A stretch of DNA of 64,000 nucleotides from Psammoneis japonica (taxonomy: Eukaryota). The notes beneath the pieces were generated by a model, which was not told where the DNA came from, did no database searches, and was given only the letters and a program-made list of their open reading frames with translations. A program made the translations under genes and the position numbers. The stretch spans positions 263,311 to 327,310 of the forward strand of contig QPGO01000034.1 of NCBI GenBank assembly GCA_008632985.1, in the 5' to 3' direction. This document shows, one piece after another, positions 5,400 to 47,639 of this stretch; the stretch's first letter is position 1, and each line of letters begins with the position of its first letter.

Positions 5400-8300
5400 C
5401 TAAAAGACATCGACATACAATGGCTATCCAGCAGTTCCTCACATCCAGCCACGGTTACACAATGAGTGGGATTTGCACAGCAGAGTTCGTTGAAACACAC
5501 TGTACGACGTCAGCAAGAACATGTGTCTGGCATGCACACATCTGTTGCACTTGGCAGTAGATCGAGATATGAGGCGTCATAGTCGTACAAACGTCATATA
5601 GTCGTAGTGGGTAGAACCGACTTCAACTACGAGATGCATCATCGCACATTGAACTTCCACAAGATGTCGTTCCCGCTGACGTTCATGACCTCACCGGTGT
5701 GATGCCGCTGCTGTTAGCAGTGCATCCCAATGTAGAACGCACGAGCGAACGATGACGTGTCAAGTAAATTGAGACGAGCGATCTACAACGTGTCGGGTCC
5801 ATCAATCATGCACGGAAGTTTGCTTCAACCCTCATTTTTCATGAGATCTGAACTTTTGCAAAGGAAGACTCTCCAGCCATCTCGACACAAAGCATCACCA
5901 GTTGCAGCTGAGACAACATCTGCGGGGACCAGAATGCACTGGTCGCAGAGTCTGCAGAGACCGGGAAACACCGGTTGCAGATTTGTCATTTCGCATTCAT
6001 TGTTGTTCATTGCACTCTTGATGTGCTGAAGATTTGTTGCACACACTCGTCTGCTGAGTCCAGAAAACACTGGAAGTGGACCCTGCAGTGACTGGGAACA
6101 CCAGTTGCAGGTCGGATTGTCTGCCATCTGTTGATCACATTGACTTCACTCCGACCATTCTCATTGCAAGTCTCATGGGTCGTCGTGTTATCTGGTGTGC
6201 ACCTGTTGCTGCGTTGTTGGTTCAACTCATCTTTGCGCAGTGTGAGCCTGCCGTCACAAGCTGTCTCATGGATGACAGCAACACCAGGCACCGAGACAAC
6301 ACAAACAGACGTTTTGAGAAGCTTTTTGTTGCAGGAATGGAAACGAGCACGTCCCTTGGGTTTGTTTGGTGTGTGACAGATTGTTAAAACCGTCTCAGAC
6401 TGCTCGACTTTCTATCAACAGATTGAATGAAGCCAGACACCTGTTGGCTCCATCTGAATGGAACCAAGTGTCGGAAGACCTGCACGATTGTTGTCGCATC
6501 GATGACGACCACATTCCACGGGATTGCCGATGGATTTCCGACCTGTTGCTTTCGCCAAGAGCTCGACACATTGTTCCGAACGACAACAGAAGGTCTGAAG
6601 GATTCACTTGTTGCAGGCCTTGCAAAAGAAGTCTCTGCACTGCTTCTGTGCCTCTGTACGCAATGGCAAATAATTGCTGTTTTGGAACACCACCACCTGA
6701 ATTATCGTGTCTTGCCGAAGTGGAACTGGCTTCATTGACACCTGTGAAAACATGTGGCTGCTGCTTCAGTTTTGTCGGTGGCAAACAGAAGAAACTGCAA
6801 GGCAGTCTTTCCCATTGCAAGATAAACACACAAAGAGCATCGCCCGCACCATTGTGCACTTTGACGTGTTGAACCTTCATCAAAATGTGGTTGTGTTGGC
6901 ATCCGGCAAAATGACACCAGAGCAAAGGCGAGTGGCCAGACAAAAGAACAAAATCAGGACTCACTGTGTAATGAGAGCACTAGAATGGCTTGTCCATCAC
7001 CACGAGAATTGGATGAATCAAGACATCGATCTAGAGGAAGTGCGAAGTAATTTACAGAATCCAGTTTTAGTGGACAACAGCAGTTTGGACGAAAGCGAAA
7101 ATGCAAACATTGAAACCACGGAGTCCTGCAGTGTTTGTTTCCCCGATGGCACCGTTTCTTCAACAACTGGTGGACAACGTAATTTAGACAGCTTCAAAGA
7201 CTTGGTGCACGATGCAGCTGCAAGCGGTTTTGACATTGAATTCAAAGCTGATCTTTTGAAAGAATCAGTCAGTGACTTTAAGGATGACAACCTGGCAAAT
7301 GCTTGCTTGCTGCAATTTCCTTGTGGGCGTGGCGGCATTGATGAAACAAGAATGAAAGAAGACGGGAGTCTCGCCGACTGTGCAAATCTAGCACATTGCG
7401 CAGATCACTTGGCCCGCATTTCTCAGCCCCATTTCCACAAGCAACTCTTTGTTCTGACCCTGTGCAATCTGACTGTGAAGCAACGAATGGTGCACAGTGC
7501 TGGATGGAAAGTAAGAGACAAAAATCAAGCCAGACAATTCTCAAATGAACTGACACAAGACGACGTCGACCGTGCCACACATGATGGACAGACTGGTGAA
7601 CGCAGGAATTATGCATTGGGACATCATTTCTTGAGTGCAGTGGATGTGGTGTCGGCATCTGTTCCACACACAAATGAAGCAGCAAAAAAAATGAGAAGAA
7701 ATGCTGAAACCCACCAACACCACTTTGGACAACCTGGAGCATTTTTAACGACAAGCCCCGATGATGCCAATTCCTTTTTAGTTCAAATTTGTGTGGACAC
7801 ACTCATCGACAAAGGCAGAGATGTGACAGAAATGTCGGATGAAGAATTGGCCGAAAAGGCTAAGGCAAGAAACGAGCTTCGTGTGGAGCACCCGGGTGTC
7901 ACGGCTTTTGCACTCGAAATGTCATTGGAAATCATCATGGAAGAAGCAATGGGATGGGACTTAAAAAGGAATTCACCCAGAGAAGATTTTGAGTTCTACA
8001 TGGGGAGACCCTCCGCTTTCATAGCTGCAATGGAAGAACAAGGTAGACTCTCGGNNNNNNNNNNNNNNNNNNNNNNNNNNNNNNNNNNNNNNNNNNNNNN
8101 NNNNNNNNNNNNNNNNNNNNNNNNNNNNNNNNNNNNNNNNNNNNNNNNNNNNNNNNNNNNNNNNNNNNNNNNNNNNNNNNNNNNNNNNNNNNNNNNNNNN
8201 NNNNNNNNNNNNNNNNNNNNNNNNNNNNNNNNNNNNNNNNNNNNNNNNNNNNNNNNNNNNNNNNNNNNNNNNNNNNNNNNNNNNNNNNNNNNNNNNNNNN

Positions 8301-9430
8301 NNNNNNNNNNNNNNNNNNNNNNNNNNNNNNNNNNNNNNNNNNNNNNNNNNNNNNNNNNNNNNNNNNNNNNNNNNNNNNNNNNNNNNNNNNNNNNNNNNNN
8401 NNNNNNNNNNNNNNNNNNNNNNNNNNNNNNNNNNNNNNNNNNNNNNNNNNNNNNNNNNNNNNNNNNNNNNNNNNNNNNNNNNNNNNNNNNNNNNNNNNNN
8501 NNNNNNNNNNNNNNNNNNNNNNNNNNNNTTCCAGATGCTGCATGCAGCCATCACATGCATGCTAACATCGCTTGTTTTTCTAAGCTGAAACAATTTCCAA
8601 AAAACAGAAAAAATTCCGAGAATGAAATGACCACCAGTGGAAGCGCGCGCAAGCGTAAATTGCACGAGATGCAAAATGCCAATTGCCGTTTCAATCTCCC
8701 CGCCGCACACAGTAAATACAATGTAATCAGGAAAGCTCACAATGCAAAAATTAAGTGGTTCTCTTGGGATGGCTCATTCCGTTGTAGATGCGTCAAAGAA
8801 ATTGTCCCCAAGAGGAGAAAATGCGATGCTTTCCAGAATGCACCGTGCCCTGCAATCAGCAGATCTAAGCTGACATGTAACACAAACATCGCAATTCCAA
8901 TGCCAGGCATCCCAGGTGGATCATGTAGAACTCAAGCACAGCAACAAAAGCATCGATCCACCCACCTTTTCGCTTGAGCCTGAGTCTTCCACTTTCAAAG
9001 CCTGTTTGAAGGACCCAACCCAACAGATGACAGCTGAGGAAAAAGAGAAACATGTGCTCGGACTGAAAGTAACCCAATTGCCCTTCACAATGAACAATGC
9101 GACTACAGGACACAAGCTTCAAGGAAGCGGTGTCGACAATGTGTTTGTACACAGCTGGAGCTGTGCACAAAACTGGGCATGTGTCATGCTCTCCAGGGTT
9201 AAGACCAGAAATGGTCTGTATCTTCGGCAACCGCTGAAGAGAGATTTAAGTCCACACAGACTGCCGGACGGGTATAACGCCCTGCTCCGGTTGATGGAAG
9301 GAAGAAGTGTCACACACTTCACCAACGAACAGTGTGATGACATTTTGCAGTCCAATTGACAAGTGGAACATTTTGACACTGCACATGGGAATTATTTCTA
9401 CCTTTTGGAAAATATTCCAGGCTTTATACG
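5400..9430 (+). mobile_element. Decayed Helitron (Rep/helicase remnant) with an assembly gap (8055-8528) and apparent internal deletion of most of the helicase; termini not resolved
   Basis: Helitron-associated CxxC...PLYAMANN...PPELSCL segment (~6610-6730); LLQFPCGRGG; Rep motifs FGQPGAFLTTSPDD and EEQGRLS; HHMH...CRFNLP; PIF1 C-terminal motifs TGHKLQG and WACVMLSRVKT (~9105-9205). Frameshifted; conserved Tyr positions read Cys/His. Confidence 0.85.
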
Positions 9431-9899
9431 CGATAGAAAACAAAGGGTCTAATCTAATAAATCGATGTTAGTACATTATTACAATGATAGACACACTCAG
9501 CAACCAGTGATACACAACGTTAGGACAGTTCTCTTATCATCTACCATAGAACGATCACACCAGAATTATCAAAAAGGGGAAACCCACGTCTCTTCTTATG
9601 ATATATTCATACACGTATACAAGAATTAAATCGCCATTTTTTGATATAATATTAAAACATTAAATATAGAATTACGTCGCACATTAATTAATTGCGAACC
9701 CATCATTTAAGCGTGCGAATTTTTTAAAAAAATGATTGGTGGCAAGTAAAGATCAAAGCTCTAAAATTTGATGCTCGCGCGCATGGCAATCCAAACCAGC
9801 CCGGGTTCCACACCTCCTCACTTCGTGTCCAGAGTTCCTACCATAAAGGAGGAACCAATTTCCGGTACGGACGAGGGAGACGGACACTAGAATTCAAGA

Positions 9900-21244: not shown

Positions 21245-24200
21245 TGCACGAGGCGTAGCTGGTCGGCCCTGTACCACATTGTTTCGAGACAAAGAAGTTA
21301 CTTTGGAACTCGTGGATTATCATGCAGAAGACGACCTTGAGAGTGAGCGCTGTCCAAGCAACATTCAGATATCGCAATGTCGAGATTCATTGCAAACTCC
21401 ATTATCGTTTTCACAAGTTGTAGACTGCCCTAGACGTTTCGCTCGTTCTCCCCATTGAATAAGTGCGGTAAAAGATGTTGGAAGCTACATGCTATGCATT
21501 CCTGTCAACGAATCGCTTTTTAGACGAAGATTCAACTCCAAAGACTAAAAAAAAATTACATCATGAATCCCATTATAGTATAATCGCTGTACCGTACCCT
21601 TATCCCTTCTCCGCCAGTTCTACCGTACCGGCAGGCATCCAACGAAACTCCTCTCTACTATACTCTAGCTCTCTACTCTAGTAGCTAGCTACTAGTAGAG
21701 AGTAGACGTCTACTCCCAAGAGTAAAACAGACAGTACGGTAAGGTTGCTTTGACGACTGACGAGCGGACGGATGGATGGAATTAATCAGCCAGGAATTTT
21801 GCGCGCAACGCCTCTCCACTGCTAGCTGGTAGCTAGGAGTGCTCTAGCTAGGGCCCCAGGGGAGTAGAGAGCAGCTGCTGCCACTGCCGGCAGCTGGAGA
21901 GTAGAGAGTGGCTACTGCCAAGTAGCAGAGATTCTCTGAGCACCCCAAACACGCGTGAGTGTGCCCAGCCCCAATCTGTCAGGGCTGTCAGACCTCCACA
22001 TGAACTGCCCTTGTCGACCTTCAAATGCCAGTTGTCGGATTTGGCGCGGTTTGACACACCCCTGTTTTTCACCAAAATGGAGCTGCTTGTGGCAGATGAG
22101 CCGCAACTTTCCAGGAAACAAGGGTGACAATTTTTGGCATTTGGCTGGCCACAGACACGTCTGCAGTCACCACGCCACTCGCGCAGAGCCACATCCATTG
22201 TCCATGCATTCTGTGACATCTCATGAGCAGACAAGTTTGACCCATTGCTGAATTTTTTTGCAAACACACTCACACACATTCAGTGTGCAGCATGTGTTGT
22301 CAAGAAGCAGACGAAATTACACACACCACATTTGTGGTCATGCACTGTTGTGTGTGTCAATCACACGACAATCATGGACACATGTGATGGTCAGATTGAC
22401 CACACAAAATGGATCAGATGTCTAAATTGCAAACACAGTTGACAGATGATGTTGACACATGAGATGTCAATGTTGATTGCATTCAGACAATCTGTTGTCA
22501 TGGTCAGATTTTCCGAAAGGCCTTTCTTGCTCTGCAAGAGCAGTGCAGACACTTTGGGCCATTGAGAACTCTTTGAGAGAATCAGGTCATGACAACAGAT
22601 TGTCCAGATGCAATCAACATTGACACCTCACAATGTGTCAACATCATCCATCGATTGCATCTGCAATTTTGGTCATCCGATCAATTCTGTGTGATGATTG
22701 TTGTGCAATTGACGCACACAATGTTGTGCAACCACAAACACGCGCAACTTCATTTGCTTGACAATGCATGCTGCAAGTGCAGTGCATGCCCAGGTTCATT
22801 TTCACAGTGTCACAAGCTCCAACAAAATTGACCACAAACCAAGAACGGTCCATCCTCAGATGGGCTCAGCCCACTGTCCATCTGGCAATGGCTTTTGAGC
22901 CAAAAATGATGGTGCTGCTCAGTTTGTGTGGCCATGTCTGCAGTCTGCAGCTGTGTGCGCTGAAGCTCTTTGTGTTGGCACTTGCAACCAAGTGTGTCTC
23001 TTGCGTGGGCCCACAAAGTCACAAAAGACTCAAAACAGCTGACAGCTGGGGAGGAGGCAGCATTGCCAACAAGTTTTCATCGTTGAACAGAAAATCTCTC
23101 CAGCAAACTTGGCACAAACACCATTGTTTTGCTCTCTCAAGCAAGAGACTCAAAAAAGCTTGTGAAGTGCTTTGCAGGGACAACAGCTGCTCGCAGGGCC
23201 CACCAAAAATTGATCTGTCAAAAAAGCTGCACTGAGAACTCAATTTTCAGAAAATGAGAGTTGACCCACTCAACTCAGCACAAACCTTTGTCCAATGGAA
23301 ATGATCTTGTGGTGTGCAAGCTGCAAAAAAGGTTGGAAGCTGTTGCCCCAAATGGACAGCACAGGTGAGCCAAGCCATGGGTGGGATTGCCAGATCAACT
23401 CCTTCATGATCTGCCAGACACTGTCAGCAGCCCGTCAAGTCAAAAGTCAATTCATTGTCTTCATGGGGCTGATCTGCCATGCTGGATTAGATGATGATCT
23501 TTGGAGCAAAAATGTGTTTGCTTCAAAGACCATCTAATCTGAGAATCTGGGCAATCTTGGAGAACAATTTTGAAATGTTCCCTGGTTGTCATTGTGGCAA
23601 TGGTGGATGTCATGCGATTGTGCTGCAGAGCAGCATGAGAACACTGCCATGTCACATGACCCTGATTTGGGGTGATGTGACAAAACAGCACACAGTGTTT
23701 TGAAGAATGTGACAATGCACCAAAGCCTTCAATTTTGTTCCTGTGATGTTGCAAGCTGTTGCCATTTTGGCTTGCAGAACATTCTTGTTTTGGGAAACTG
23801 ACTTCCACTGTTTGCCCACATTTGACATTTGTGTGCAATGGGTTTTGGGTTTTTTCATTTCAAAAGACAAGACACCAATTGCCACAGAAGCATCTCATTT
23901 TTTACATCACATCTCAACACAACACAGGAACAGGAGGAGAGCTGCCCTTTGCACTTTGCACAATCTGACACTTGACTTCCACTTTGACTGTGCAAACAGG
24001 GTGACCTTGTGTGATGGAATCTTTGCCTGATTGCTCAATTTTTGTTGGCCATGATGTGCAATGCAACCAACATGTGCGTCACCCCTGGTGTGCCAGAAAT
24101 TCATTTTTGTTGCCCTGAAAGTTAACAAAAACACCCACGTTTACTTTTTCAACCAAGCTGGGCTTTTCCCCCTCTTCCATTTCTGACAATGTGTGGCTGT

Positions 24201-25183
24201 CTGTGGCATGGAGTTGCTGCTTGCTTGTCTTGTCATGCCCTTGCAAGGCACATTGAGTGGACTTGTGATGAAGCTTGCCCATGTGTTGTTGACAAAGAAG
24301 GAGGCAATGACACAACTCTTCACAGGACATTGATGGGGCAGATGTCAAGCAGTGACAGTTTTGGTGGGTGGTGGCAGCCATGATGACAATTTAGAAGAAA
24401 TCAGCCATGAAATCAGCTGCCAATGAGCTGGACTCTGCCTGTTCTGATGATACAATGACAAACATTGTGGCAATGAGCAGCTGACTTCTCCTGCACCATC
24501 ATGGTTCAATGGTGCTGTGGTGTCAGAGAATTCTGCAGCAGCTCTTGTCCCTTTTTCATCTTGGGAGGATGAAAGCAACACAGGCATGTCTGACAACACA
24601 GCTTGTGTTGGTCAGCTTTCTGATGCCATGAGCAAACATTCACAATGCATCTCCTCTTTGGACTCAGTGATGACAGCAATTTTGGCTTCCCACCCAATGT
24701 CACCAATGAAGGCAGTGATGCTGCAATGCACCTTCCTGAAGATGGTGATGGTGGTCGTGGCAAAGATGATGAGAAGAGGAGTTGGCACATCATTTGTGGT
24801 TGAGGCATGTCCCTCTTTTTCACACACCAAATTTGTGAATCTCATCTTTTTGCCCCAATGCAGCAACTTTTGCTTGATGCCATGTGCAGCCATTTGTTCT
24901 TCAAGCATGTGCCACATCATGGCTTGTGCTGACCCTCTCATCATGCACATTGAGGTGTGTGTTCACAAGGTTTTGGCTCCATTCCTCCCACCTGTTGAGC
25001 TTTGGTGCTTTTTTGTGTGTGGACAATGAGAGAAAACTTTTTTGGCAATGAGGAGTGTGTTGCCAATGAACTGTGTGGTTCCAAGGTGTGTGGTGAGTTG
25101 AACACAGGCACACCACAGTGGAGGGGGCACAGGCTGCATTGATGACTGTGTGTGGCACATGGTGACATGTCCACACAGGCGAT

Positions 25184-27020
25184 GTGCCAGTTGATTCAAT
25201 GGTTGAGACATTGAAGTGCCCACTGAGCAAGCGAGATGGTGAAGAGGCTTGCCGGCAACCGTCAGGCAGCATGATGGCATCTCATCCATTTGTGGAGCTT
25301 GCACTTTGGGCAGGATGCATGACAACTGTGCACTTTCAACATTTGAGACAACCACAGGTGCACTGCTTTTCTCCAATTTGTGTTTTCATTGATGGGGCGC
25401 ATTGTGGCCACAATGACCAGCTGCAGTCAGAGCCTGTGTTGGCTTCATTTGGAAATTTCTCCACGTTGATTGGGCACAGCCCTGATGGTTTTTGCTTGGC
25501 CTGTTGCCAAATTCCATGCTGACTCCTCAAGAAAGAAAGCATTGCAATTGAGGCTCTAGTCTCATGGTGAGTGCTTGGGCCTGCAGCTGCATGGTGGTGC
25601 ACTTCAGGCAGTGTTTTGAGAGCTGACTCATCTGGAGCAGTGTGGTGAGGAGACCAGCAAGGAACTCCCCTGTAAAGTTCATGAACTTGGAGATGGGCAT
25701 CTTCTTTTTTGAGTTTGCAGTGATCATGTTGCACTTCAGGCAGTGTTTTGAGAACTGACTCATCTGGAGCAGTGTGGTGAGGAGACCTGCAAGGGGGGTT
25801 TCCCCTGCACAGTTCATGAACTTGGAGATGGGGCGGCATCTCCTTTTTTAGTTTGCAGCATGTGCTGGAGATGCAGTTGGTCATGATGCCTTGACTTGGC
25901 ACTGCAAATCTTGTGGCAAACTGACTCATCTGGAGCAGTGTGGTGAGGAGACCAGCAAAGGGGCATTCCCCTGCACAGTTCATGAACTTGGAGATGGGCA
26001 TCTCCTTTTTTTAGTTTGCAGTGTGTACTGGGAATGCAGTTGGTCATGATGCCTTGACTTGAAACTGCAAGTTTTGTGGCAACAAGCTCAGTTGACTGAT
26101 CTGCTCCTGCAACAAGTCTTCTGAAAACCCGCTTGACAACCCTGATGTTGAGGAGTGTGAACTTGTCACTCAAAAGACATTGCACCTTGCAACATCAAAC
26201 TTTGCACTGGCAAGATTCAAAGGTGATGCAAAGTCAGCAAGTGCTGTGAGAAAGCCAAGTCAATCTCACAGCCTTTTTCATCCCTGTCTTTGACAAGATT
26301 TCCTGTGGTGGCTGCCAGTGTAGCATCTTTGGACTGGCACCTTTCTGGCTTCTTTGCGTGCATTTGCTCAGCATGATGAAACATTCCCTCAAAGCTCTTT
26401 TCTCTTTTTGGTCATGGCAAAGATGTGCACAACCATGAACAAAACAAAAAAACAACCAAAAGTCCATTTTCAATGTTGGGAACTCAAGCAAAGGGCTCAC
26501 ATGCTGCCTTGCAGAGCAAACAACAGATTGGCTGTGGCTTTCCACCAGATGTGGTGTCAAGTGCTGGAGTGACAACCTTCATGGGCACACAGGGCAAGGA
26601 GCATTTCTGGTTGAGCCTGCTTTCAACTGCAGCTCTCCCTGGAATGAAGGGAGGCTCCTCATTGGAAAAAAGCTTTGTTTTCCTTCTCTGGCAGGGAGTT
26701 GTTCTGTCACATGCTCCACCACAATCACCACAATGAAGTGCACAAATTGGAGACAAAAAAGGCAAGAACTGGAGGACCGCATTTGTCTGCACCACTCAAA
26801 CAAAGTGGTGGGACCTGTGCACAAAATCAAATCAAAACATCCTCTGCTGTTGGAAACAAGCTCCCACAGTTTTGTGGCATGCTGCACATCCTGAGGCAGA
26901 CTGCACTGTTGGGGTCTTCTCAAAGCCACTGCGGCAACCATCTTGAGGTTTGAAAGCATTTTTCAAGCCCCCCCCCTGCCAGAAGGACTGGCAAAACACA
27001 GCAGCTTCAAGGTGGATCTG
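25184..27020 (+). pseudogene. Decayed Plavaka-like (CACTA/EnSpm-related) transposase
   Basis: PICVFIDGAH...QSEPVLASFGNF (~25373-25460), GDAVGHDAL (25867-25893), SIFGLAP (~26322), KLPQFCGMLHILRQTALLGSSQ...ARRTGKT (~26858-27000) match, by recall, the PIxxFIDxTH...EPVxxTLG, GDxxGHDxLCG and KFHxxxH...FGS...PAxxTQK motifs of this family. Confidence 0.65.
25598..26070 (+). repeat. Three imperfect tandem copies (~130-180 bp) within the transposase remnant
   Basis: Core CTGACTCATCTGGAGCAGTGTGGTGAGGAGACC...GTTCATGAACTTGGAGATGGG starts at ~25624, ~25756 and ~25921. Confidence 0.9.
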
Positions 27021-29345
27021 ACAAACAGATGTGGTTTGAGTGGGAGTGTGCAGACTTGTGTTCATGGAGAGTGAACATTGGCAAGAGAGATGAGCTGATT
27101 GAAAAACAAGTGAGACAAGAATGTGCATGGGTTCTCTTTGCAGACCAAGAAGGAGAAGAGCAGTGTTCTGCCCAGTTGCAGTCCAGCTCTCTTGCAAGAC
27201 AACTTGCCCCAGCAATGTGTTTGTGTTCCTTCACAACAGGCAGCACAAACAAAAAGCAGTGGTGCACACAACATGCCCAGTGTTCTGAGCATGATGTGGC
27301 ACATCTTTTTATCCAACTTCTTCCCAGCTGCATTTTGAGCCTGCTGCTGTCATTTCTCAGGAACCAGTTGAGCAACAATGTGGTGGCAGTTGCGGCAAAC
27401 TGTGAGTTGTGCATGGCATTGAATGCTCCAGTGAGAAAGCATGACACCATTTGACACAGCCCAAAGTGCCAAGAAGGATCTTGGTTTAACTGGGTGATGC
27501 CAGTGCATGCAGAAATTGGCCAAGAAGATGATGGTGAAGACTGCAAGGTCCCTGCTTGTGCTCGCATCTGTGGCTTTCATCCGTTGAGCCACAAACTGGG
27601 AAATGATCCATTTTTGCTCTTGTCCAGCCCACAGTCTCAGCAAAAATGCAGCAACAAAGCATCTGACAACATGAGGTTCTGGAATGTGGGCAGTTTTCTG
27701 CCATGAGGGCAGTGTTGTTTCTTTTGAAAGCTGGTGCTGAGACAGGGGCTTGTGGTGTGTTGCCCACAATTGACTGCTGCCTTTTCCCAAAGGAAACCAC
27801 ATGAAAAACATGATGGTGTCCTGTCAGAGGACAAATCAAGCTGCAAAAATGCTTCCTTGTTGTGCCTCACCTGCAACATGGCACAACAGCAATTGTTGGG
27901 CCAACCACCTGGCTCTGACAGTTTGCCGGCAAAGCTGGAAAAGAATGATGTGGCAAAAACAGCAAAGCTTTGTTGGAGTTCTTGTGAACACCATGCAACA
28001 ACAACAAAAAAATGCAGCAATGCAGAGACAGAGGTCACAGCCACTTTACAAAGCCACTGTGTGCTCGTTGGGCTGTGTGTGCATTTCTCTGATGGACATC
28101 AGTCTTGCACCCTTTGCCGAAAGCTGCCAAGCAACAGGTTTGCTCACAATGTTGAATGAGGCAGCATGAAAGCAGCAAAGCTCAGCTGCACTTGCAAACA
28201 GCATGTGACAATCATGCAGCTGCACATCTGGTGATCACAGTCACTCTGCACAGAGCACCTGTCCACTTGTTGGACTGCGCACATGTCCCCTGCATGGCAA
28301 CCTTGTGCGCTCCATCCAAAACCACAATTTGCTGCACAACATGTCTCCTTGGAAGTGAATGGATCTCCATGGGATGACGCAACCTTTTCATCTTGCAAAG
28401 AGAAGATTGTTGGCTGTTGCCATTGTTGTTGCTCCAAAACTTGTGTGACAGAGCTTTCAAAAGCTGTGCCACCTTGCCTTGTTGTCACACCCAAGGCTGC
28501 CAAGTTGGTGAGATGCACTGTGCTTTTCTGCAGTTTTAGCAAAGTGCTCAAAACCCAAAACCTGGAGCAGTTTCACTCATCACAGCATGTGGGAAAAATC
28601 CCTGGGCTGTCACAACCTTGCCAAGATTTTGGCAATGCTTGAGTTTCCTGAGCATGGACATGGCATTCTCAGCCCTCATTGAAGCAAGGTCAAAAACTGT
28701 GTCAGTCAAGAACAATGATGATCACAACTTGTCCATTGCCTCTTTGTGGTTGCCATGGACTGGGTTTCTGTTGCTGTCTTTTTTGACGCCCACCCAGGTT
28801 GTCACAGGGGGGGTGATTTTGTCTCAGTTTCCGGGGACCACTCAGCTTGCTCTTGGGCCTGAGCACCATGACCACCTTGATGCTCCACAAACCACAAAGA
28901 GACTTCAAGTCTTCCTCATGCAGCAGATGCAGCCAAGTTTGGACAATGTTCCATTCTCTTCATGAGTCAGTTTGTTCCCAGCACTTGACTGTCTGCATGA
29001 TTGCCCCCACGTGTTTGTTCTTGAGAACACCAGGTGCTGACTTTGTCAACAATGTTGCCTCAAACCTCATTCCTCTGCCTCAGTTTTGATTGACTTTGTC
29101 AGCCAGCTTTGCACCAAACAGGTTTGATTGTTCCATGCCAGTTTGGAATGACACTGCTTGTCAAGGAGCCCAAACCTGTCAAGACTGGACATGATGTCTG
29201 TGGCTGCCCTCCCTGTTGCAGACCTCAAACAGCACTGCAGCGGAGCAAGGTTTCATGGATGGAATGGCAAGCATGGATGATGAGTTGTGTTTGAAGCTCT
29301 GGCAGCCCAAGCCCCACACAGCTTGCCACCTTGTTGCCCCTGTCG

Positions 29346-30059
29346 GCATTTGCCCAGAGATGAGTCAACCTTCTCTCCAGCTGTTTCCATGTGTTTGCAA
29401 AGCATCCCATCATTGCAGATGGCAGAGAACTCTTCTCTGTCTCCCTGCCATGTGTGACAAAAGTGGGCAGCAGGTGTGTTGGCAAAACAATTCATTGGAA
29501 AGCAACAGCTGGCTTGCTGGCATGCAAAATGGCAATGCATTGTCCAAACTGGTCCACTGATGATCTCCACAAAACTCTGTGCTGATGTTGTTTTCAAATG
29601 CACTGTGAACACCTTTTTCATTTGCCCCCATCTGCATTTCCCAGGGATGAGTCAACTTTCTCTCCAACTGTTTCCATGTCTTTGCAAAGCATCCCATCAT
29701 TGCAGATGGCAGAGAACTCCTCTCTGTCTCCCTGCCACGAATGACAAAAGTGACCAGGTGTGTTGGCAAAATGATTCATTGGAAAGAAACATCCAACTTG
29801 CTGGCATGCAAAACTGTGATGAGTTGTCCAAGCTGGTCCATTGATGATCCACAAAACTCTGTGCTGACATCATTTTCAAATGCACTGTGAACACTTTGTT
29901 CATTTCCTTTTTGCAAACCTCTTGCAGCACAGATGCATGCTGCACACACAACTCTAAAAATGCAGCTGCATGAAGTTTTTGGATGCTGGACCAGGCATTG
30001 TCACAAAGCAAAAACACAAAACTCCATGCTGACATCATTTTCAAATGCATTGTGAACAC
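29346..30059 (+). repeat. ~290 bp tandem duplication plus a partial third copy
   Basis: GATGAGTCAAC...GCAAAGCATCCCATCATTGCAGATGGCAGAGAACTC...TTTTCAAATGCACTGTGAACAC at ~29346-29612 and ~29634-29894; partial copy ~30015-30059. Confidence 0.9.
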
Positions 30060-30899
30060 ATGCCTTGTTTGCTTCCCTTTTGAAAACCTCTTGCAATGAG
30101 GCATCCTGTGCAACTTGCAGCACAGATGCACAGGCACAACTCTGAACAAAAAAAATTTTTGGAAGGCCAGCCCACCCAGGTGTCATCATGAAGTGGCAAT
30201 TGTCCCTTGACAAAGCTGCCAACCACATTGAAAGTGTCGCCCATTTCCTCACAGATGAGATGTCCATTGCAGTCACCAGCAAGGCTGCCATCCACAAGTG
30301 TGTGCTCTTGTTGTTGGTCCACTTCAGCCAGTTTGATGTTGCCATTGGCATTGCCAGCACCAATGCTGGCATCAGAGAGAGTTGGGTCATGACCCATGGC
30401 CAAATCCTCGACAATCATGGTCATGCTAGAAAGCATCATTGTTGAGGATGCAGTGGATCTGGAGAAGGCACCAATGCTGAGAACAAGAGCAGCCATGGAA
30501 AAGGTGGCAACCAAGGGAGCTAGAAAGGTGCCATGTGCTTGTGGAGCAGGAGACTCATGCGCGCACAAGATGCGTCAAGACAAACTCAAAAACAAGTTTT
30601 TGAGTTGGGATGAAGCTCTTGATGCACCAGTGACAGACAAGAAGCCAAGGAAGAAGAAAACCATCAGTGGCTGCACTGTTGGAAACTGTGAACTGAGCAG
30701 TTGACATCCCTGAAAGTGACGTTGAGGAATTTCAGTTGCTTTGTTGTCTTGTCAGTGTGACAATGTTTGGTGCACAATGGATGTTTGACGAGTGTGCCAA
30801 ATTGGCACAACAAAAACAGCGCGACATTGTGGAGAACTGAAAACAGCGCTGTTTCATTGGGAAAGAATTGTGATGATGGCATTGCACCCCCAAATTGCG

Positions 30900-32731
30900 T
30901 GACACCACAAAATGTTTTTAGCCCCACATGAAATTTTTTCCTTGTCCCAGGTTTTGATTTTGAAGGATCGCTTGCATTTTCACAACACGAGTGATGAGAC
31001 ATTGTGTCAAAACAGAGTTGCAAAATGTGTGTGGGAATGAAACTTCTGTTTAAACCACAGCATTGCAACCAGTGCTCGACTCTGCTTGAAACTCAGATGA
31101 AAAACAGGCCATTTGTGGCATCTGATTTGTGCTCTCTCAGTGCTGTGCCCGGTGCTGTCTGACACACACTGTGATTTTTGCTGCTCTGTTTTGAGATCAA
31201 TGGATCTTTTGTTGAGTTTCCAGCTTCATGGTGTGCCTTGTGAATGGCAGAGAGAGTGTTGCAGCAACTGTCACCCCTCCTTTTTGGCTCGAGGCATGTG
31301 CAGTTGGCACGCCACAGCACAACACACAGAGAGAGAGCCCCAAACACAAACCCACCTCAGGATGACAGGCAGGCCATGTGTCTTGCATTGGCTGGAAAAG
31401 GGATCAAAAGGAAGCAAGAATCTCTTTTCAGCATGGCATTTTTTTTCCTGCTCATTTTCTTTCTCTCATGGCGACCAGCCGAAAAATGCAACATGCCAAC
31501 ATTGAAGATCTTCAACACTCAAACAGACATTCTCAAAATTGCTGTGTTCAGAGTTGAACACATGTTTAAATTTTTCTCCCCTCACACAAGTTGGACACAA
31601 GCAACATCACAAAACATGTGTTTTGACCCACATGAAATTTTTGCGTTGTTGCAGATTTTGATTTGGGAGGTCACTTGCATTTTCACAACAGCCCCACCTC
31701 ACAAAACAACAGTGAACTGGAATTGTGTGGTGTGTGTGGGCATGAAACTTGTGCTCAAGCCGCAGTGTTGTAGCCAGTGCTCAACTCTGCTTCAAACTCA
31801 GATGAAGAGGGGCATGTTTGGCCAGATGAGGCCAGGCAACAAGGCGCGTCATTTGTGTGTCTGATTTTTGCACTCTCTGAATGTGCTGTGGTGTCCAATG
31901 CACACACTGTGATTTTGCACCATTTTTCACTCCTCAGTGAGCTTGAGATCAACAAATCTTTTGTTCAGTGTCCAGCTTCATGGCTCGCCCTGTGAATTGT
32001 GGAGAGAGTGTTGCAACAGCTGCCGCCCCTTTTTTTCTCAAGGTGCATCACACAACACATGCAGAGAGCCCCAAACAAGCCCGTCTGGACAGGGCAGGCC
32101 CCTTGTGGGTTGCATTGGTTGGAAAAGGGATCAGAAAGAAGCAAGAATCTCTTTTCAGCACTGCACTTCAGAGCTTGGCACGGTGCCCACCGACATGGCA
32201 GGATGAACCTGGTGTGGACATTCCTGCTCATTTTTCTCATGGCGACAGGTCGGAAAATGCAACATGTGTCCAATGCACACACTGTGATTTTTGCACCATT
32301 TTTCACTCCTCAGTGAGCTTGAGATCAACAAATCTTTTGTTCAGTGTCCAGCTTCATGGCTCGCCCTGTGAATTGTGGAGAGAGTGTTGCAACAGCTGCC
32401 GCCCCTTTTTTTCTCAAGGTGCATCACACAACACACAGAGAGCCCCAAACAAGCCCGTCTGGACAGGGCAGGCCTTGTGGGTTGCATTGGTTGGAAAAGG
32501 GATCAGAAGGAAGCAAGAATCTCTTTTCAGCGCTGCATTTCAGAGCTTGGCGCGGTGCCGACCGACAGGATGAACCTGGTGTGGCCCGACATTCCTGCTC
32601 ATTTTTCTCATAGCGACAGGTCGGAAAATACAAAATATTCATTAATTAAGATCTTTCATACACAAACGGACATTCTCAAAGTTACAATATTCAGAGTTGT
32701 ATGCGTATTTAAATTTTTCTCCCCTCACACA
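30900..32731 (+). repeat. Nested duplications: a ~700 bp unit repeated (30900-31590 and 31605-32731), the second containing a near-identical ~375 bp tandem pair (31891-32265 and 32266-32635)
   Basis: Shared CCCACATGAAATTTTT...CTTGCATTTTCACAACA, GGAAAAGGGATCA...GCAAGAATCTCTTTTCAGC and TTTAAATTTTTCTCCCCTCACACAAG strings. Confidence 0.9.
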
Positions 32732-38991: not shown

Positions 38992-39685
38992 ACGGTACTG
39001 TACGGTAGTGGCCCTATCGGAGACAGTCGCTCGCGCTGCCTCGTCTTCTTTCAGCATTTTTATTTGATTGATGGTTGTCAATTGATTGCGAATGGCACCA
39101 TCAGTCAGGTGAGTTGAAAATGTGTGTTTCAGTCGTACAGTTGCTGCAAGATCAAACAATGATGAGATTGTGATGCACTTACGAGTGTGGTTGACATTTG
39201 CACAAAACTCTTGATTGCTGCTCACAACATGAGATGATGCATCTCATTTTTCTTTGGATTTTTCAAAAGAAAATGCTGGCAACACAAGCNNNNNNNNNNN
39301 NNNNNNNNNNNNNNNNNNNNNNNNNNNNNNNNNNNNNNNNNNNNNNNNNNNNNNNNNNNNNNNNNNNNNNNNNNNNNNNNNNNNNNNNNNNNNNNNNNNN
39401 NNNNNNNNNNNNNNNNNNNNNNNNNNNNNNNNNNNNNNNNNNNNNNNNNNNNNNNNNNNNNNNNNNNNNNNNNNNNNNNNNNNNNNNNNNNNNNNNNNNN
39501 NNNNNNNNNNNNNNNNNNNNNNNNNNNNNNNNNNNNNNNNNNNNNNNNNNNNNNNNNNNNNNNNNNNNNNNNNNNNNNNNNNNNNNNNNNNNNNNNNNNN
39601 NNNNNNNNNNNNNNNNNNNNNNNNNNNNNNNNNNNNNNNNNNNNNNNNNNNNNNNNNNNNNNNNNNNNNNNNNNNNNNNNNNNNN

Positions 39686-39948
39686 TGGACCAATGGCCGC
39701 TGTCAATTGATCCAATCAACTGCAACTCAAGTGGAGTGCAAAACAATGTTCAAAATCCCTCCATTGAGCATTGAGAGTGATCCATTCAATCAACACTCTG
39801 CACACAAATGGAGAGTTGCTCTGCCGCATGCTTGCAATTTATGAATTTGCTTCACTGCGACAACCAAACTCTTCGTCAGTCCAAATGCTTGCACTCTGGT
39901 CACCATCATCAACCAGCTCTGATGGTCAGCAGTTGGGCATTTCAAACA
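39686..39948 (+). repeat. 5' LTR (partial)
   Basis: Aligns with 43935-44190 (ATTGATCCAAT...GTGGAGTGCAAAA...ATCCCTCCATTGAG...CTGATGGTCAGCAGT...AAACA). Confidence 0.85.
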
Positions 39949-42900
39949 GACTTCCTTTGTGCTGAGTGAGACAAAAGAGGCAACCAATCATCATTGTGTT
40001 TTCTCTGAGACACCTCCTGCTGAGGCCATCACAGGCATTCTTGACTTTGCAGAGATGAAGGCTCACAGTGCAACAAGGTGGTCAAAGAAGCTTGTGGAAA
40101 ATGGCTTTGTCTGCATGCAGGAGAAACTTTTCCAGCTCCTCAAGATTCTCAAAGATGGAGCTGCTGAGAATGGTTGGAATGAAGATGATGACAATCTGGT
40201 GAACACAATCATGTCTGACACCACCAATTTGTTGACACACCGTGGTCAAATCAAAATGGACCTCACCTGTTGACACAAGTGCGTGTGCATCAATCAACTG
40301 ATGAGGCCAGCACAAGATGCAAGGATGCCACACCACCTTGTTGTGAGTGCACTTTCTGAAGAAGGAAAGACCAGAGTTTTGGTCTGGGAAAAGCATCACA
40401 AAATTCTCAAGAATGACAAGACATGTTTGTTGGGAAACCTTCTGTTGAAGGCAACAATCCAAGAAAGTCACCTTGACACCAATGCAACTGCAACAAGCAT
40501 CAGGGTAAAACTTGGCAGCAATCTTGACAAGTGCATTGGCAATGCATTGAGCAACGTCATTGACAAATTCAATTGATGCCACTCCTGAATCAAGCCCTCA
40601 GGTCTCATGGTGAGACAACTGGGGATCTCCAGTTGAGCATGTTCAAGTGACACCTTGCAGCACCCAACAAGACATTTGTCAACTGCATCTGTCACAAACA
40701 CGACAAGCACAATGAAGGAAATGACATGGACCCCAATGAACTCATGAGCCTTGTGGCAAAAAAGCACAAGAAGATGGACCTGGTCAAGATGGAGGAATGG
40801 AGCACACCATCATCCCTTGAAAAGGAAAAGATTTTAGCTCCAGAAGCAAGCTCATTCCAAGCAGGCAAGCTGTGAAAGGATTTGGAGGGTCAAAAACAAT
40901 GGGGTTGTGATGGGCATGTTGATCTGGCAATGGCACAATGATGACAGGATTGCTCACTTGTTCAAGGCCAGCCCAAGATCCCAAACTTGCACTGCGCACA
41001 CCTGACGAGGATGGCAAGGTCCATCTGCCCAGTCCCTGACACTGGGCAAAGACACAAAAGGACTGCAAGCCAGTTGAGGTTGCAGGGGAAAACACAGATT
41101 CCAAGCTGTGCAGCACTCTGTGCTGCTGGAGCCAAAAGCAAACTAAATTTGCACCTCCCCTGAGTCCAGAAACCAACATCGCAATGTTTGATCTTGCTTG
41201 TGGTTGCCAAAAATTCAAGGCCTTCTGTGCCAAATGTGGGGTCAATGACACCACTGAAGATGATGATCCTGTTGCAGTGAACGAGGCAAAAATTGTGAGC
41301 AATGAAGAGGAAGACAATGAGGAAGAAGAGTGTGATGTTTCAGGGTCAGTAAAACACACCTGGGCCTTGAATCCAACCATGCCTCAGGGTCGGATGAGAA
41401 CACTCCAACCACCACTCCATTGAATCTGGGTGGGCCACCTGAGGGCACAAGCAATGATGCTGGTCTGCCCACCCAACTCACAACAGAAAAGGAAGATTGG
41501 CAGAGAGAAGGTGCATCAGCCAACTCATTGAGACACCATGAAAAATGTGGGCACATCTCATTCCGGAAACTGCAAGCAATGGCAGAGGCAGAGCAGGGGG
41601 GTGTCCCAAAGCATTTGGCAAAATGCAATGCACCTGCATGCTTGGTCATGAAAGCAGGTGATGTGATTGCAACAAGAAGGTGCACAATCTACAGAAGCCA
41701 GCTCAATCAGGCCAAGTGGCTGGTGTCAGCAGATCAAATGGCATCATCAACCCTGGGGCTGATTGTGCAGATGGCAAGGTTTCTGACAACCCCAAGCTGA
41801 AATGCAAGTGCACAACAGTGTGTGTCAACCAATGCCCCCACTTCAGCCATGCACATTTGTTGCAAAAGATGGCAAGCATGGAGGAGGAGATGCCAGAAGG
41901 AAAGAAAGCTTTCAAGCTGATGGCAAGAAATTGTGGAGTCAAAGAGCCAACTTGCCATGTGGACAATGGGATGTGTTCAAGGTGAAGCAACAGGTGCAAG
42001 CACATCATGACCAAGGGCAAGGCCTTGCATTTGCAGGCATCAACACACAACACATGAACAGCATCACCAAGCACCACATCCACAAGCTGCAGGAACACTC
42101 CTGCAGCATGCTCATGCATGCCAACAAATGATGGCCTTCAAGCATCACCACCAACTTGTGGCCATGCACTGTCTGAATGGCAAACAATGCAGCCAATGAA
42201 ACACAAAGCTTTGGCAGACGTGGACACCCCATGTGCACACCAAGCAATCAAACAACAAGATTGCAAGGAATTTGTCAAGGCAATGTGCAAAGAGGTTGAG
42301 GCACAAATGAAGAATGGAGACTTTTGCCACAGTTCCAAGATCAATGGCAACTGACAAAAGGAAGTCACTTCCATCTGTGTGGCAGATGAAATGAAAGAGG
42401 TGCATCATGGCCTGCACTGTCAAGAAATGGACAGCAAGATTGAACATGAACAGATCAAGAATGAGAGAAGAGGTTGATTGCAGCCAAAGGTGTGCCCCAG
42501 AAAACTTGATGCATGTGCACCTTCCATGAGTGCATGATTGGTGCACCAAGCAACTGGGCCATGTGTTGGCTTTCCCACAGGCTCCAGCAGAGCATGAGAT
42601 TTGTGCACAGATTCCAAAGGCATTTGAAGTTGATGAAGGAGATTCAAAGGACTTCATGCCACACTTGAGTCAGAATTTGCGCAGACAGAAACAAGCCGGG
42701 TGGGTGTGGAACAAAGAACACCTGGTCAATGAGTTGACAAAAGAGCTGGGCTTTGCACAGCCCCAGGTTGATGAGTGCACACTCCACCAAGGCAAGATGA
42801 TGCACTTGCTGTGTGTTGATGACAGCTTGTCAGCATGACCCGATGAGGAAGAAATTGATCAAATCCTGAGGATTGTCCAAAGGCTGCCAAGCTGGGCATG

Positions 42901-43885
42901 AAGGAAGAGTGAGACATGCAAGACTCCCTTGGTGCTGACATTGAAAGAAAAAGTGACGGCACTGTGCATCTCACACAGCCACACCTCATTGACCAAATGT
43001 TGAAAGAGACCTGGAGGTTGTTGATGGCAATGATGCAAAGCCCAAGGATGCTCCAGCCTCATGCTCAAAATTGTTGTCCAGGCACTCCAGCTCAGAAACT
43101 TTTAGACACTTCAACCACAGATCCATTGTTGGCAAACTGAGTCATCTGGAGAAGGCTGTCACAAGGAGTGTCATTGCTTGCATCATGCACCAATGTGTGC
43201 AATTCATGGCACATCAGAAGAAGGAACATGGTCAAGCACTCAAGTGGTCAGGATGACACCTCAAAGGTGCAAGAGACAGGGGTGCTGTGCTGAAACCTCA
43301 AGAAGGCAAAGACTTGGAAGTGAGTGTTGATGCCATTTTCAGTGTGATGGTTGGGACCCTCAAGAGGCAGCTGCTGATCATGATGCCACCAGGTCCAGAC
43401 ACTTGGACATGTTCTGTGCACTGAATGTCCCATCTTTTAGAACAAATCTCAGCTGCTGCAAACAGAGGGTGCATTGACAGAGGCTGCACTGAGTTTTCAA
43501 TCAAGGAGAGTGTGAACATGCTGGTGTGTTGAGAAGTGCAGCACCTTTCATGTGGAGCTGCTCAAGGAAATGAAGCACAGCAGCTTCTCAGCACCAGTCA
43601 CAGGTTCATCCAAGAACCAAACACTTGAGTGCAAAGTTGCACCACTTCAGAGACCATGTCTCCCAGAGAGACATTTCAGTCCATTCCATTGACACAAAGG
43701 AGCAACTTGCCGATCATCTGCAAAGCCAGTGAATGCAGACATTCTGCTGGTTGTGTCCTGGGATGGCAGGACCCATTCAAAGTCCACTGGGTGTTGAGAG
43801 TGCAATGTCTGAAAGTGCACACTTGAGTTCTGATTTGCCAAATCATGTTCAGGGGCAATGACCCCATGTCCCAAATGAGAGGGAG

Positions 43886-44190
43886 TGTAAAAAAATGACC
43901 TCACACTCAAGTTTACAGAGTTGCAGATGTTGGGCCAACAGCAGCCCCTGTTGATTGATCCAATTGACTGCAATTTGAGTGGAGTGCAAAATTTTCAGCA
44001 TTCAGCATCCAGCATCCCTCCATTGAGTGTTGAGAGTGATCCTTTTAATGCTCTGTGCAAATGGAGAATTGCTCCACTGCATGCTCACAACTTGCGAATT
44101 CACCATGACAATTGAACTCTTTGTGAGCCCAAATGCCCTGGTGAACATCATCAGCCAGTTCTGATGGTCAGCAGTCAGGTGTTCTAAACA
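43886..44190 (+). repeat. 3' LTR, ~305 bp, TG...CA
   Basis: Starts TGT immediately after the polypurine tract and ends AAACA where similarity to the 5' LTR stops. Confidence 0.85.
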
Positions 44191-44787
44191 AGCCCGTAAC
44201 TTCTCACATGAGTGCACTCTGGGCGGGCAGTCCTTCTTGGCCAATGAAAACACACAAGGGTGACAACACAAACCACAGTCAGTGGCAAACAGAACCAGCT
44301 GAAGCCACCCAGTCGGTCATGAGCCAAATCATGGAATTTGCTCTCAGTTAGAAATTAAAATTCAGACAACTCCAGAAAGTAAGAAAACGAAAAAGAGAAA
44401 AGCATGTGTTATTTCGAAAAGTTATGACCCTTCTTTGCAGACTAGATGTGAGTTTTATGGCCAGTGTGGGCCCAACAAGGTTGAACAAATCGTGGCTCAT
44501 TCTAGTTGTTTAGTTGTCCCCCCCCCTCTTGCTATGGCAATCTACAACTCGTTTTCATATTAGTGGACTTCATCCCAACAATCAGCTAATAAGCGACCCG
44601 TTGTGGAGAAGAGAGACGCAACTGAAACGCTTCTAAATGAAAGCCTGAATCTAACAACTCCTGGTCGACTGACTACTTTTGTTACCTACGATACATCTAC
44701 CGTACTTCGTTTAAAGTTATTCACAGACGGTTACGACCGCTGCAAGCACTGAGACACAAAGCTCATCTCGCAGACACTATGGGAGAA

Positions 44788-47192: not shown

Positions 47193-47639
47193 CGAAGTGT
47201 TTAAGTGCTGTGGAAAACTGAAGATTCTTTATTGTAGAGCTGCATCTAAAGCTTAATGTAGAAGACAACCATTTTTCGAGAACAGCCTCTGTCCAATCTC
47301 AAACAGTCAATTTCACGGCCGGTTTCTTTGTCATTGTGCATTGTGGCTTCGCATCGTGCGTGGATCGCGAGACGCGCGTCGCGCGCGAGCGCGCGACTTC
47401 GTACCGATATGATTCTGTCCGTCCGTCCACCCTAAGCGATCATATTATTTTAATTTGTAATCAGTGCTGAATATGATTGTAATGAAATTCAAATTTTCTA
47501 ACGGTCGCGCCAGAAATTCGAATTCGCAAAAACGAAGAACGACAAAACCAACGGTACTTTTGACAAAAACCACAACACAACAACAACACGACACCGGCAG
47601 CACCAGTGTCGACGGTACGAGTCGTTCTATACAGCAGCC

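Follow-up and report, generated by a model that had tools for sequence, protein, structure and literature searches.

A Helitron copy in the genome of Psammoneis japonica raises the question whether the loss of TpA dinucleotides from mobile DNA is a process of its own or a by-product of CpG decay. The copy lies at 5786-9392 of a stretch of 64,000 nucleotides (assembly GCA_008632985.1, contig QPGO01000034.1, positions 263,311 to 327,310 of the forward strand; hereafter the window, whose own positions are used throughout), encodes a Helitron RepHel protein on the plus strand and is internally deleted. A preliminary description made from the sequence alone had noticed that this Helitron has lost TpA (TA) and largely kept CpG (CG). 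It had proposed that the two mutation processes are separable, that TA loss is faster or earlier and not a by-product of CG decay, and that the copy is an early-stage target. We compared the element with its protein relatives, with other copies in the genome and with two more TA-poor tracts of the window, B and C. The comparison makes it probable that a TA-erasing process exists which is separable from CpG decay, that TA loss leads in this Helitron lineage and that the lineage was hit repeatedly, before and after its amplification.

In Neurospora and other ascomycetes, repeat-induced point mutation (RIP) inactivates repeats and mobile DNA by directed, dinucleotide-specific transitions that stay within sharp boundaries. 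It turns CpA into TpA and thereby creates TpA, lowers the GC content and leaves many stop codons. Deamination of 5-methylcytosine (5mC) is the general route of CpG decay. A TpA-restricted hypermutation of integrated giant-virus and virophage DNA has been described for Bigelowiella natans (Mettrop et al., bioRxiv 10.64898/2026.01.13.699255). Two hypermutable regions had gained 211 and 20 new mutations there, of which 210 and all 20 were A>G or T>C, each of them at TpA. Beyond this 2026 preprint on an unrelated alga, our literature search found no description of TpA-targeted DNA hypermutation.

TA and CG in the Helitron tract

The Helitron tract holds 45 TA and 108 CG in 3127 non-N bases. Its TA depletion is bounded, with normal density up to 5784, the position of the last flanking TA, and again from 9393 on. 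As background we used 44.5 kb of mostly genic window DNA outside the three tracts, in which the ratio of observed to expected dinucleotides (o/e) is 0.59 for TA and 1.01 for CG. TA o/e is 0.05 in the 5' part of the element (5790-6650), 0.23 in the middle (6651-8054) and 0.32 in the 3' part (8529-9390); CG o/e in the same three parts is 0.65, 0.62 and 0.60. At the background ratio 32.6 TA would be expected in 5790-6650, and 3 are present (P=4.5e-11). Within that part a CG-rich stretch at 6481-6600 has 11 CG and 0 TA, just as had been counted by hand before. Four windows of 500 nt between 6001 and 8000 have a TA o/e of 0.09-0.22; of 169 background windows none falls under 0.29. TG and CA reach an o/e of 1.4-1.8 in the element, and its GC content is unchanged at 0.45-0.48. 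TA is thus heterogeneous along the element, with a sixfold range (p=0.0067), while CG is flat (p=0.95), which argues that the two processes are separable.

The direction of the changes was read from protein relatives. From 165 relatives gathered, 15 with less than 1.5% Tyr were dropped as seemingly mutated, as were matches covering less than 60% of a segment; four in-frame segments, 2562 coding nt together, were aligned to panels of 79, 110, 48 and 42 proteins. A reversion counted as favoured if the restored residue had a panel frequency of 0.25 or more and was three or more times as frequent there as the present one, and decidable non-synonymous sites were counted. TA-restoring reversions were favoured at 35 of 153 sites (22 TG, 13 CA), against 22 of 443 for control transitions in other contexts (p=1.8e-9). 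CG-restoring reversions were favoured at 8 of 132 sites and did not differ from the control (p=0.66). When kept paths, that is, present TA or CG steps whose mutation the panel would disfavour, are set beside the lost ones, the lost:kept ratio is 35:26 for TA and 8:45 for CG (p=2.9e-6). The estimated lost fraction is 0.57 for TA and 0.15 for CG; over four thresholds it stays at 0.55-0.58 of the informative TA sites and 0.08-0.20 of the CG sites, CG loss never rising above control. Strong polarised TA loss with CG loss at the control level indicates that the two processes are separable, and the claim that TA loss exceeds CG decay and does not follow from it is borne out.

The same contrast is found at single codons. 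Twenty of 22 informative Tyr codons (91%) are lost, 15 being Cys and 5 His now, and 2 are kept; among 11 informative CGN Arg codons 3 are lost (now His or Gln) and 8 kept (Tyr versus Arg, p=4e-4). Where the relatives have an invariant or nearly invariant Tyr, Ile or Val, single TA>TG/CA steps have given the window copy Cys or His, Met or Thr, and Ala, respectively. In the Rep segment 6701-8053, 2 of 451 residues are Tyr (0.4%), against 2-4.5% in most relatives. Two Cys codons had already been pointed out as sites of expected Tyr, and the relatives agree. One is the TGT at 7322-7324 (plus strand), which makes the conserved FPYGRGG read FPCGRGG; Tyr stands at this place in 51 of 66 panel relatives (77%) and in 75% of the panel of 110 proteins. 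The other is the TGT at 9180-9182 (plus strand) in WACVMLSRV, at the invariant Tyr of the YVxLSRV helicase motif, which is Tyr in all 42 panel relatives. Intact relatives with Cys or His at these positions, or a CG loss equal to the TA loss, would have spoken against the proposal; relatives carry Tyr, and CG loss lies below TA loss.

Polarised outcomes comprise 25 TG and 14 CA, so both strands are affected, and the bias between them is not significant by our own binomial estimate. Editing of a single-stranded transposition intermediate alone is argued against by this lack of a significant strand bias. In sum, A:T>G:C transitions restricted to TpA occurred on both strands, were bounded to the element and recurred.

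Among the 165 Helitron relatives, the 15 with less than 1.5% Tyr (including P0002, P0007, P0023 and P0121) come from environmental assemblies; the other 150 have a normal Tyr content. We examined five of the Tyr-poor ones. P0002 has His or Cys at 5 of 6 conserved Tyr and keeps 9 of 9 Arg, P0023 has His or Cys at 6 of 6 conserved Tyr and keeps 7 of 9 conserved Arg, and in P0007 and P0121 half of the conserved Tyr columns are replaced with conserved Arg mostly kept. A set of this kind would under-sample proteins with CGA>TGA stops. The loss of Tyr with Arg kept in the five again points to separable processes, and the TA-erasing footprint is therefore not limited to the window locus or its subfamily.

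Copies in the genome and layout of the element

A public run (X1) shares 62% of the sampled words of the stretch, and 678 of its contigs match 5500-9700 at a likeness of at least 80%, some of them stemming from the window's own locus. Identity to the window is at least 99% in 223 contigs, 95-99% in 202, 90-95% in 186 and lower in 67. A marine sediment metagenome (X2) gave 4 contigs on the stretch; two further runs, X3 and X4, gave none. Transitions make up 177 of 196 variant places among the X1 contigs. The copy differences described here are those at the 40 of 199 variant places that were listed; they amount to 29 events, 26 of them inside the element. Twenty of these 26 fall on TA-derived sites, namely 11 paired TG/CA swaps between the window and other copies, 6 sites with TA in the others and 3 with TA kept only in the window; three of the remainder are other changes. 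Judged by the protein panel, TA is clearly the ancestral state at 4 of the 11 swaps and the likelier one at 3; no swap leans to CG, and the remaining 4 give no information. Single TA sites thus took independent hits on opposite strands in different copies. At 7791-7794 the window reads TG TG TG where other copies read TA TA CG, and a contig of depth 478 keeps TA, TA and CG at 7790-7795.

These copy differences bear on the simplest objection, that a low TA content is native to the Helitron family, by codon choice or selection, with no directed mutation at all. With a TA o/e of 0.59 the host genes of the window are TA-poor to begin with, which would suit it. We consider it very improbable, as conserved Tyr, Ile and Val codons were changed by single TA>TG/CA steps relative to the relatives, other copies keep TA at the 6 sites listed and show TG in one copy and CA in another at the 11, and 150 of 165 relatives have the usual Tyr content.

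Much of the TA loss is shared between copies. A contig of depth 721 over 7287-7564 differs from the window solely by the TG/CA swap at 7381/7382, and one of depth 706 over 5786-5989 is one base off; two long diverged contigs have depths of 66-68. From the near-identity of the high-depth contigs it follows that a multi-copy subfamily shares the Cys codons at positions 7322, 7397 and 7463 as well as the TA-free 5' region, these Tyr-to-Cys states being present in probably about ten copies, and hence that much TA loss predates the amplification of the subfamily. Hypermutation and amplification alternated, later hits were added separately in each copy, and the subfamily was already protein-dead; missense inactivation did not stop the non-autonomous element from spreading. 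To call the window copy an early-stage target was therefore too simple, as its Cys states are common to the subfamily, though it has indeed added private TA hits and a few CG hits. The unmutated ancestor of the subfamily was not recovered, protein searches giving nothing closer than 54-65% identity (54% at similar lengths and among representatives; among shorter proteins 65%, over half of the query). Metagenome contigs scanned with a protein guide and with a degenerate DNA pattern gave no match in either case.

On the 5' side the element may be delimited by a possible Helitron end, A|TC at 5781|5782 (5781-5783, plus strand), which was read from the sequence; a high-depth contig, and with it a unitig, starts at 5786, and loose X1 contig ends at 9431 hint at the other junction. 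No CTRR 3' end was seen before 9431, and no second copy was found within the 64-kb window by blastn or tblastx. All parts of the coding region lie on the plus strand. The N-terminal part of RepHel (6318-6827) matches Pfam DUF6570 (E=1e-5) and, by phmmer, residues ~20-195 of relatives with E down to 1e-49. Its frame differs from that of the rest, the frames starting at 6318 and 6701 being offset by 2. Between the N-terminal and Rep frames the window copy has two extra bases in a CA run (6826-6832), which other contigs omit at 6826, 6829 or 6831; without them the DUF6570 frame would join the Rep frame. Because other genomic copies do without these bases, we regard this as a frameshift in the window copy, private to it or to a minority of copies. 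The Rep half (Helitron_like_N, 6830-8053) matches PF14214 above its cut-off (E=1.6e-8) and has 641 homologs, the best at 54% identity and 149 at E<=1e-30. A run of 474 N (8055-8528), equal to 158 codons, lies inside the frame, hides part of Rep and corresponds to a stretch of 163 residues of the relative P0010. The distal Rep part (8531-8905) matches residues ~788-911 of relatives of 1900 aa.

There follows the junction of an internal deletion (8904-8910), mapped against P0010 and P0016 and accompanied by loose contig ends at 8907. About 840 residues are missing, among them the PIF1 core. The C-terminal tail of the helicase half (8904-9359, with the stop at 9357-9359), ~150 residues long, matches residues 1743-1889 of P0016 by phmmer (E=4e-38) and has no Pfam match of its own. 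Full-length relatives of ~1900 aa have PIF1 at residues ~1403-1568, and the PIF1 match of P0016 at 1403-1539 lies upstream of the aligned tail, so that a PIF1-type helicase domain is absent here with its core deleted. DUF6570, Helitron_like_N and the helicase tail are collinear with the 1900-aa RepHel relatives. The window element thus resembles known Helitron/RepHel proteins (PF14214, PF20209, PF05970) in domain order and departs from them in the missing PIF1 core, the frameshift and the missense changes at catalytic-motif Tyr; canonical termini were not found. Judged from its sequence, it is a dead deletion derivative and not autonomous.

Long reading frames survive all the same, as had been observed before: the frame 6701-8977 has 758 codons, 158 of them N, with the frameshift near 6826-6870 and the deletion near 8907. 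A change of TA to TG or CA cannot make a new stop codon, TAA>TGA being the one case in which a stop results, so the long frames persist as a side effect and do not point to selection. The N run within the frame and a second one at 39290-39685 (396 N) are both divisible by three, and the first keeps the Helitron frame open. Outside the element, the flanks at 5500-5781 and 9431-9700 also lie under many high-depth X1 contigs and thus are repeated in the genome; their TA is normal (o/e about 0.6-1.0). At 5596, within the left flank, 17 of 17 contigs have G where the window has A, giving CG elsewhere and CA here.

Neighbouring bases and the comparison tracts B and C

The loss of TA is uneven, and the preliminary description had placed a TA-retaining patch at ~6965-7190. 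That patch does hold 8 surviving TA in 226 nt (plus strand), where the rate of the element itself predicts 3.25 (P=0.018 for a patch picked post hoc); the unevenness as a whole is a 5'-to-3' gradient together with an effect of context, and not one patch. All 8 TA stand in GTAA, TTAC, TTAG or CTAG and none in TAT or ATA, contexts that are apparently disfavoured by the process.

Survivors elsewhere agree. Counted on both strands, A stands next on the 3' side of 41% of the surviving TA in the Helitron and of 46% in tracts B and C, the background share being 21%; T stands there in 12% and 4% of cases (background 26%; p=4e-5 and 1e-8). TTAA is kept in the Helitron at 1.14 of its background density and ATAT at 0. 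The net gain of TGN per expected TAN is -0.20 for N=A, 0.60 for C, 0.37 for G and 0.81 for T in the Helitron, and 0.07, 0.90, 0.49 and 0.72 in tracts B and C, figures which assume a background-like ancestral composition and an even split of the CG decay products. In a hand tally of the xTA codons judged by the panel, TTA had 1 loss against 6 retentions, GTA 4 against 3 and ATA 2 against none. These observations are suggestive of a process that prefers T-A-Y, then T-A-G, and spares T-A-A. Such a preference would make Tyr (TAY) the hardest-hit residue, with a Cys:His ratio of 15:5 that needs no strand bias. The motif TGTTGCA was not clearly enriched in the 5' region (32 against 21.6 expected).

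Tract B (22000-32610) has a TA o/e of 0.04 and a CG o/e of 0.16, its core 0.03 and 0.10; tract C (39686-44250) has 0.04 and 0.09. No Pfam domain was found in the 72 open reading frames (ORFs) of at least 90 aa scanned there, 53 in B and 19 of 25 in C, 6 having been dropped for overlap with an N run. Open frames are abundant in both tracts, as is to be expected if TAA and TAG cannot exist there. TG and CA are near twice expectation in B and C. The margins and an inner patch of tract B (22000-22600, 30401-31100 and 32000-32610) have a CG o/e of 0.37-0.38 with TA at 0-0.08, a state with TA loss ahead of CG loss as in the Helitron. A tandem duplication of ~376 nt (31913-32288 and 32289-32664) straddles the right edge of tract B, where the first TA is at 32611; its units differ at 8 of 344 aligned bases (2 TG/TA, 2 CA/CG, 4 other) and form a weak before/after pair. 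Outside the tracts, a host gene with a 1608-codon open frame (47502-52328, plus strand) encodes a condensin-II subunit D3-like protein, the best relative having 47% identity, with TA and CG at background levels.

At similar TA depletion CG differs sevenfold, from 0.05/0.65 (TA/CG o/e) in the Helitron 5' part to 0.03/0.10 in the core of B and 0.04/0.09 in C, and this too argues that the processes are separable. A loss of CG to TG or CA that is specific to repeat tracts, as in the CpG decay of methylated transposons, is clear in B and C (CG o/e 0.09-0.16); in the Helitron such a decay seems hardly to have acted. CpG decay cannot explain the TA loss, which involves A:T pairs. Tracts B and C look older than the Helitron, which fits a slower CG decay.

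One might instead see in these tracts the stages of a single process, in which one editing activity, for instance a deaminase of A and C in DNA, acts on both TpA and CpG with TpA as the better substrate. In B and C both dinucleotides do end as TG and CA inside the same boundaries, and ADAT2-type enzymes, for which editing of both A and C in DNA has been reported, are cited in the B. natans preprint (10.64898/2026.01.13.699255). The ratio of TA to CG log-loss relative to background is not constant, however, being about 5.6, 1.9 and 1.2 in the Helitron parts and 1.1-1.3 in the core of B and in C. Within the element TA varies sixfold with CG flat, CG reversions are not above control, and the process described for B. 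natans is TpA-only. We therefore consider a single activity improbable.

With two separate processes, the kept CG could be due to youth or to a lack of methylation. The Helitron as a short intergenic element may be un- or weakly CpG-methylated rather than young. The tract is only 3.6 kb long and lies between TA-normal, CG-normal DNA, the margins of tract B keep CG (0.37-0.38) with TA gone, and in Cyclotella cryptica methylated repeat blocks alternate with unmethylated gene-rich blocks (PMC5124317). Nothing direct stands against low methylation. The subfamily looks young, 425 of 678 contigs, some from the window's own locus, being at least 95% identical to the window, and the Helitron keeps clear protein homology, unlike B and C with 0 Pfam matches in 72 ORFs; these observations fit age equally well. 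Taken as a whole, separate processes with CG kept for want of methylation is the less likely account, though one to be reckoned with. Youth would explain the kept CG in the Helitron, and for that single point absent methylation is equally live.

Several observations weigh against a TA-erasing process that runs ahead of CpG decay. The CG o/e of 0.60-0.65 is well below the background of 1.01, so that up to about a third of CG may have been lost at silent or non-coding sites; the polarised tests detect a CG loss of 8-27% only. CG is thus largely kept as far as polarised loss goes, a claim of the preliminary description that stands with this reservation. Among the events listed, three CG sites (7626, 7794 and 9053) are kept in other copies and lost in the window. 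The polarisation rests on distant relatives and on the 40 variant places listed. Copy number was inferred from contig depth, which is no copy number. As to the neighbour rule, a small unbiased sample of copy differences does not by itself show a sparing of T-A-A (A stood at +1 in 6 of 31 events counted by hand), so that the rule rests on survivors, products and xTA codons.

Relation to known systems and meaning of the two footprints

RIP was ruled out for the Helitron by its TpA depletion, its TG/CA excess and its unchanged GC content. Compared with RIP, the process in the window destroys TpA, raises GC and inactivates through missense changes, chiefly of Tyr to Cys or His. The closest likeness is to B. 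natans. In both cases A changes to G after T and T to C before A, on both strands, in bounded foreign or mobile DNA and in the direction of GC, against the usual mutation bias; TpA-depleted coding sequences of B. natans are enriched in transposon domains. In the Helitron, changes are TpA-restricted and confined to bounded mobile DNA, and there is no comparable G:C>A:T excess, CG reversions being at the control rate and 3 of the 26 copy differences listed lying at CG. The two cases differ in that the B. natans rate was measured in mutation-accumulation lines on viral targets, while the window offers a historical footprint only, in a Helitron of another organism. CpG, diatoms and flanking-base context are absent from the main text of the preprint; here a second decay, of CpG, overlies the TA process in the older tracts.

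We propose that the process turns TpA into TpG or CpA, which would amount to an A-to-G change after T on either strand. Many hits would have fallen before the amplification of the subfamily, the element presumably being mobilised in trans as a non-autonomous one, and further hits would have fallen independently on the window copy and on its sister copies. The decay of CpG to TpG or CpA would be a second, separate process, barely started in the Helitron and near complete in tracts B and C. The chemistry of the TA change would be adenine deamination in DNA by a deaminase that reads T-A, as has been put forward for B. natans. The natural substrate of TadA/ADAT enzymes is A34 of tRNA, which follows the invariant U33, and the E. 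coli enzyme reads U-A-C; such a reading would fit the T-A-Y preference. The B. natans preprint names an ADAT2-like candidate deaminase (10.64898/2026.01.13.699255). We would ascribe the loss of CG to slow deamination of methylated cytosine, since diatoms have been shown to carry CpG methylation on their repeats (PMC5124317, PMC9998398).

A wider view is possible, to which we give almost but not quite an even chance: a TpA-specific A-to-G editing of DNA that this genome directs against mobile DNA, mechanistically independent of cytosine methylation and acting early and repeatedly. It would prefer T-A-Y and spare T-A-A, create no stop codons, erase Tyr codons including those of catalytic motifs, and fail to stop the amplification of a non-autonomous Helitron. 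If such an editing system exists, two-dimensional profiles of TA and CG would date insertions on two independent clocks.

The Helitron is a clean, polarised case in which the TA process is far advanced and CpG decay is not, so that the TA process is not a side effect of cytosine methylation and deamination. The present work contributes polarised counts, hits shared by a subfamily and the neighbour rule. The suggested order of 3' neighbours (T-A-Y before T-A-G, with T-A-A poor) sets a concrete limit on which enzyme could be responsible. A protein-dead, mutated Helitron lineage still multiplied, which bears on the efficacy of such a defence against non-autonomous elements, and the TA and CG footprints are usable as two distinct records of the time and manner of a transposon's silencing.

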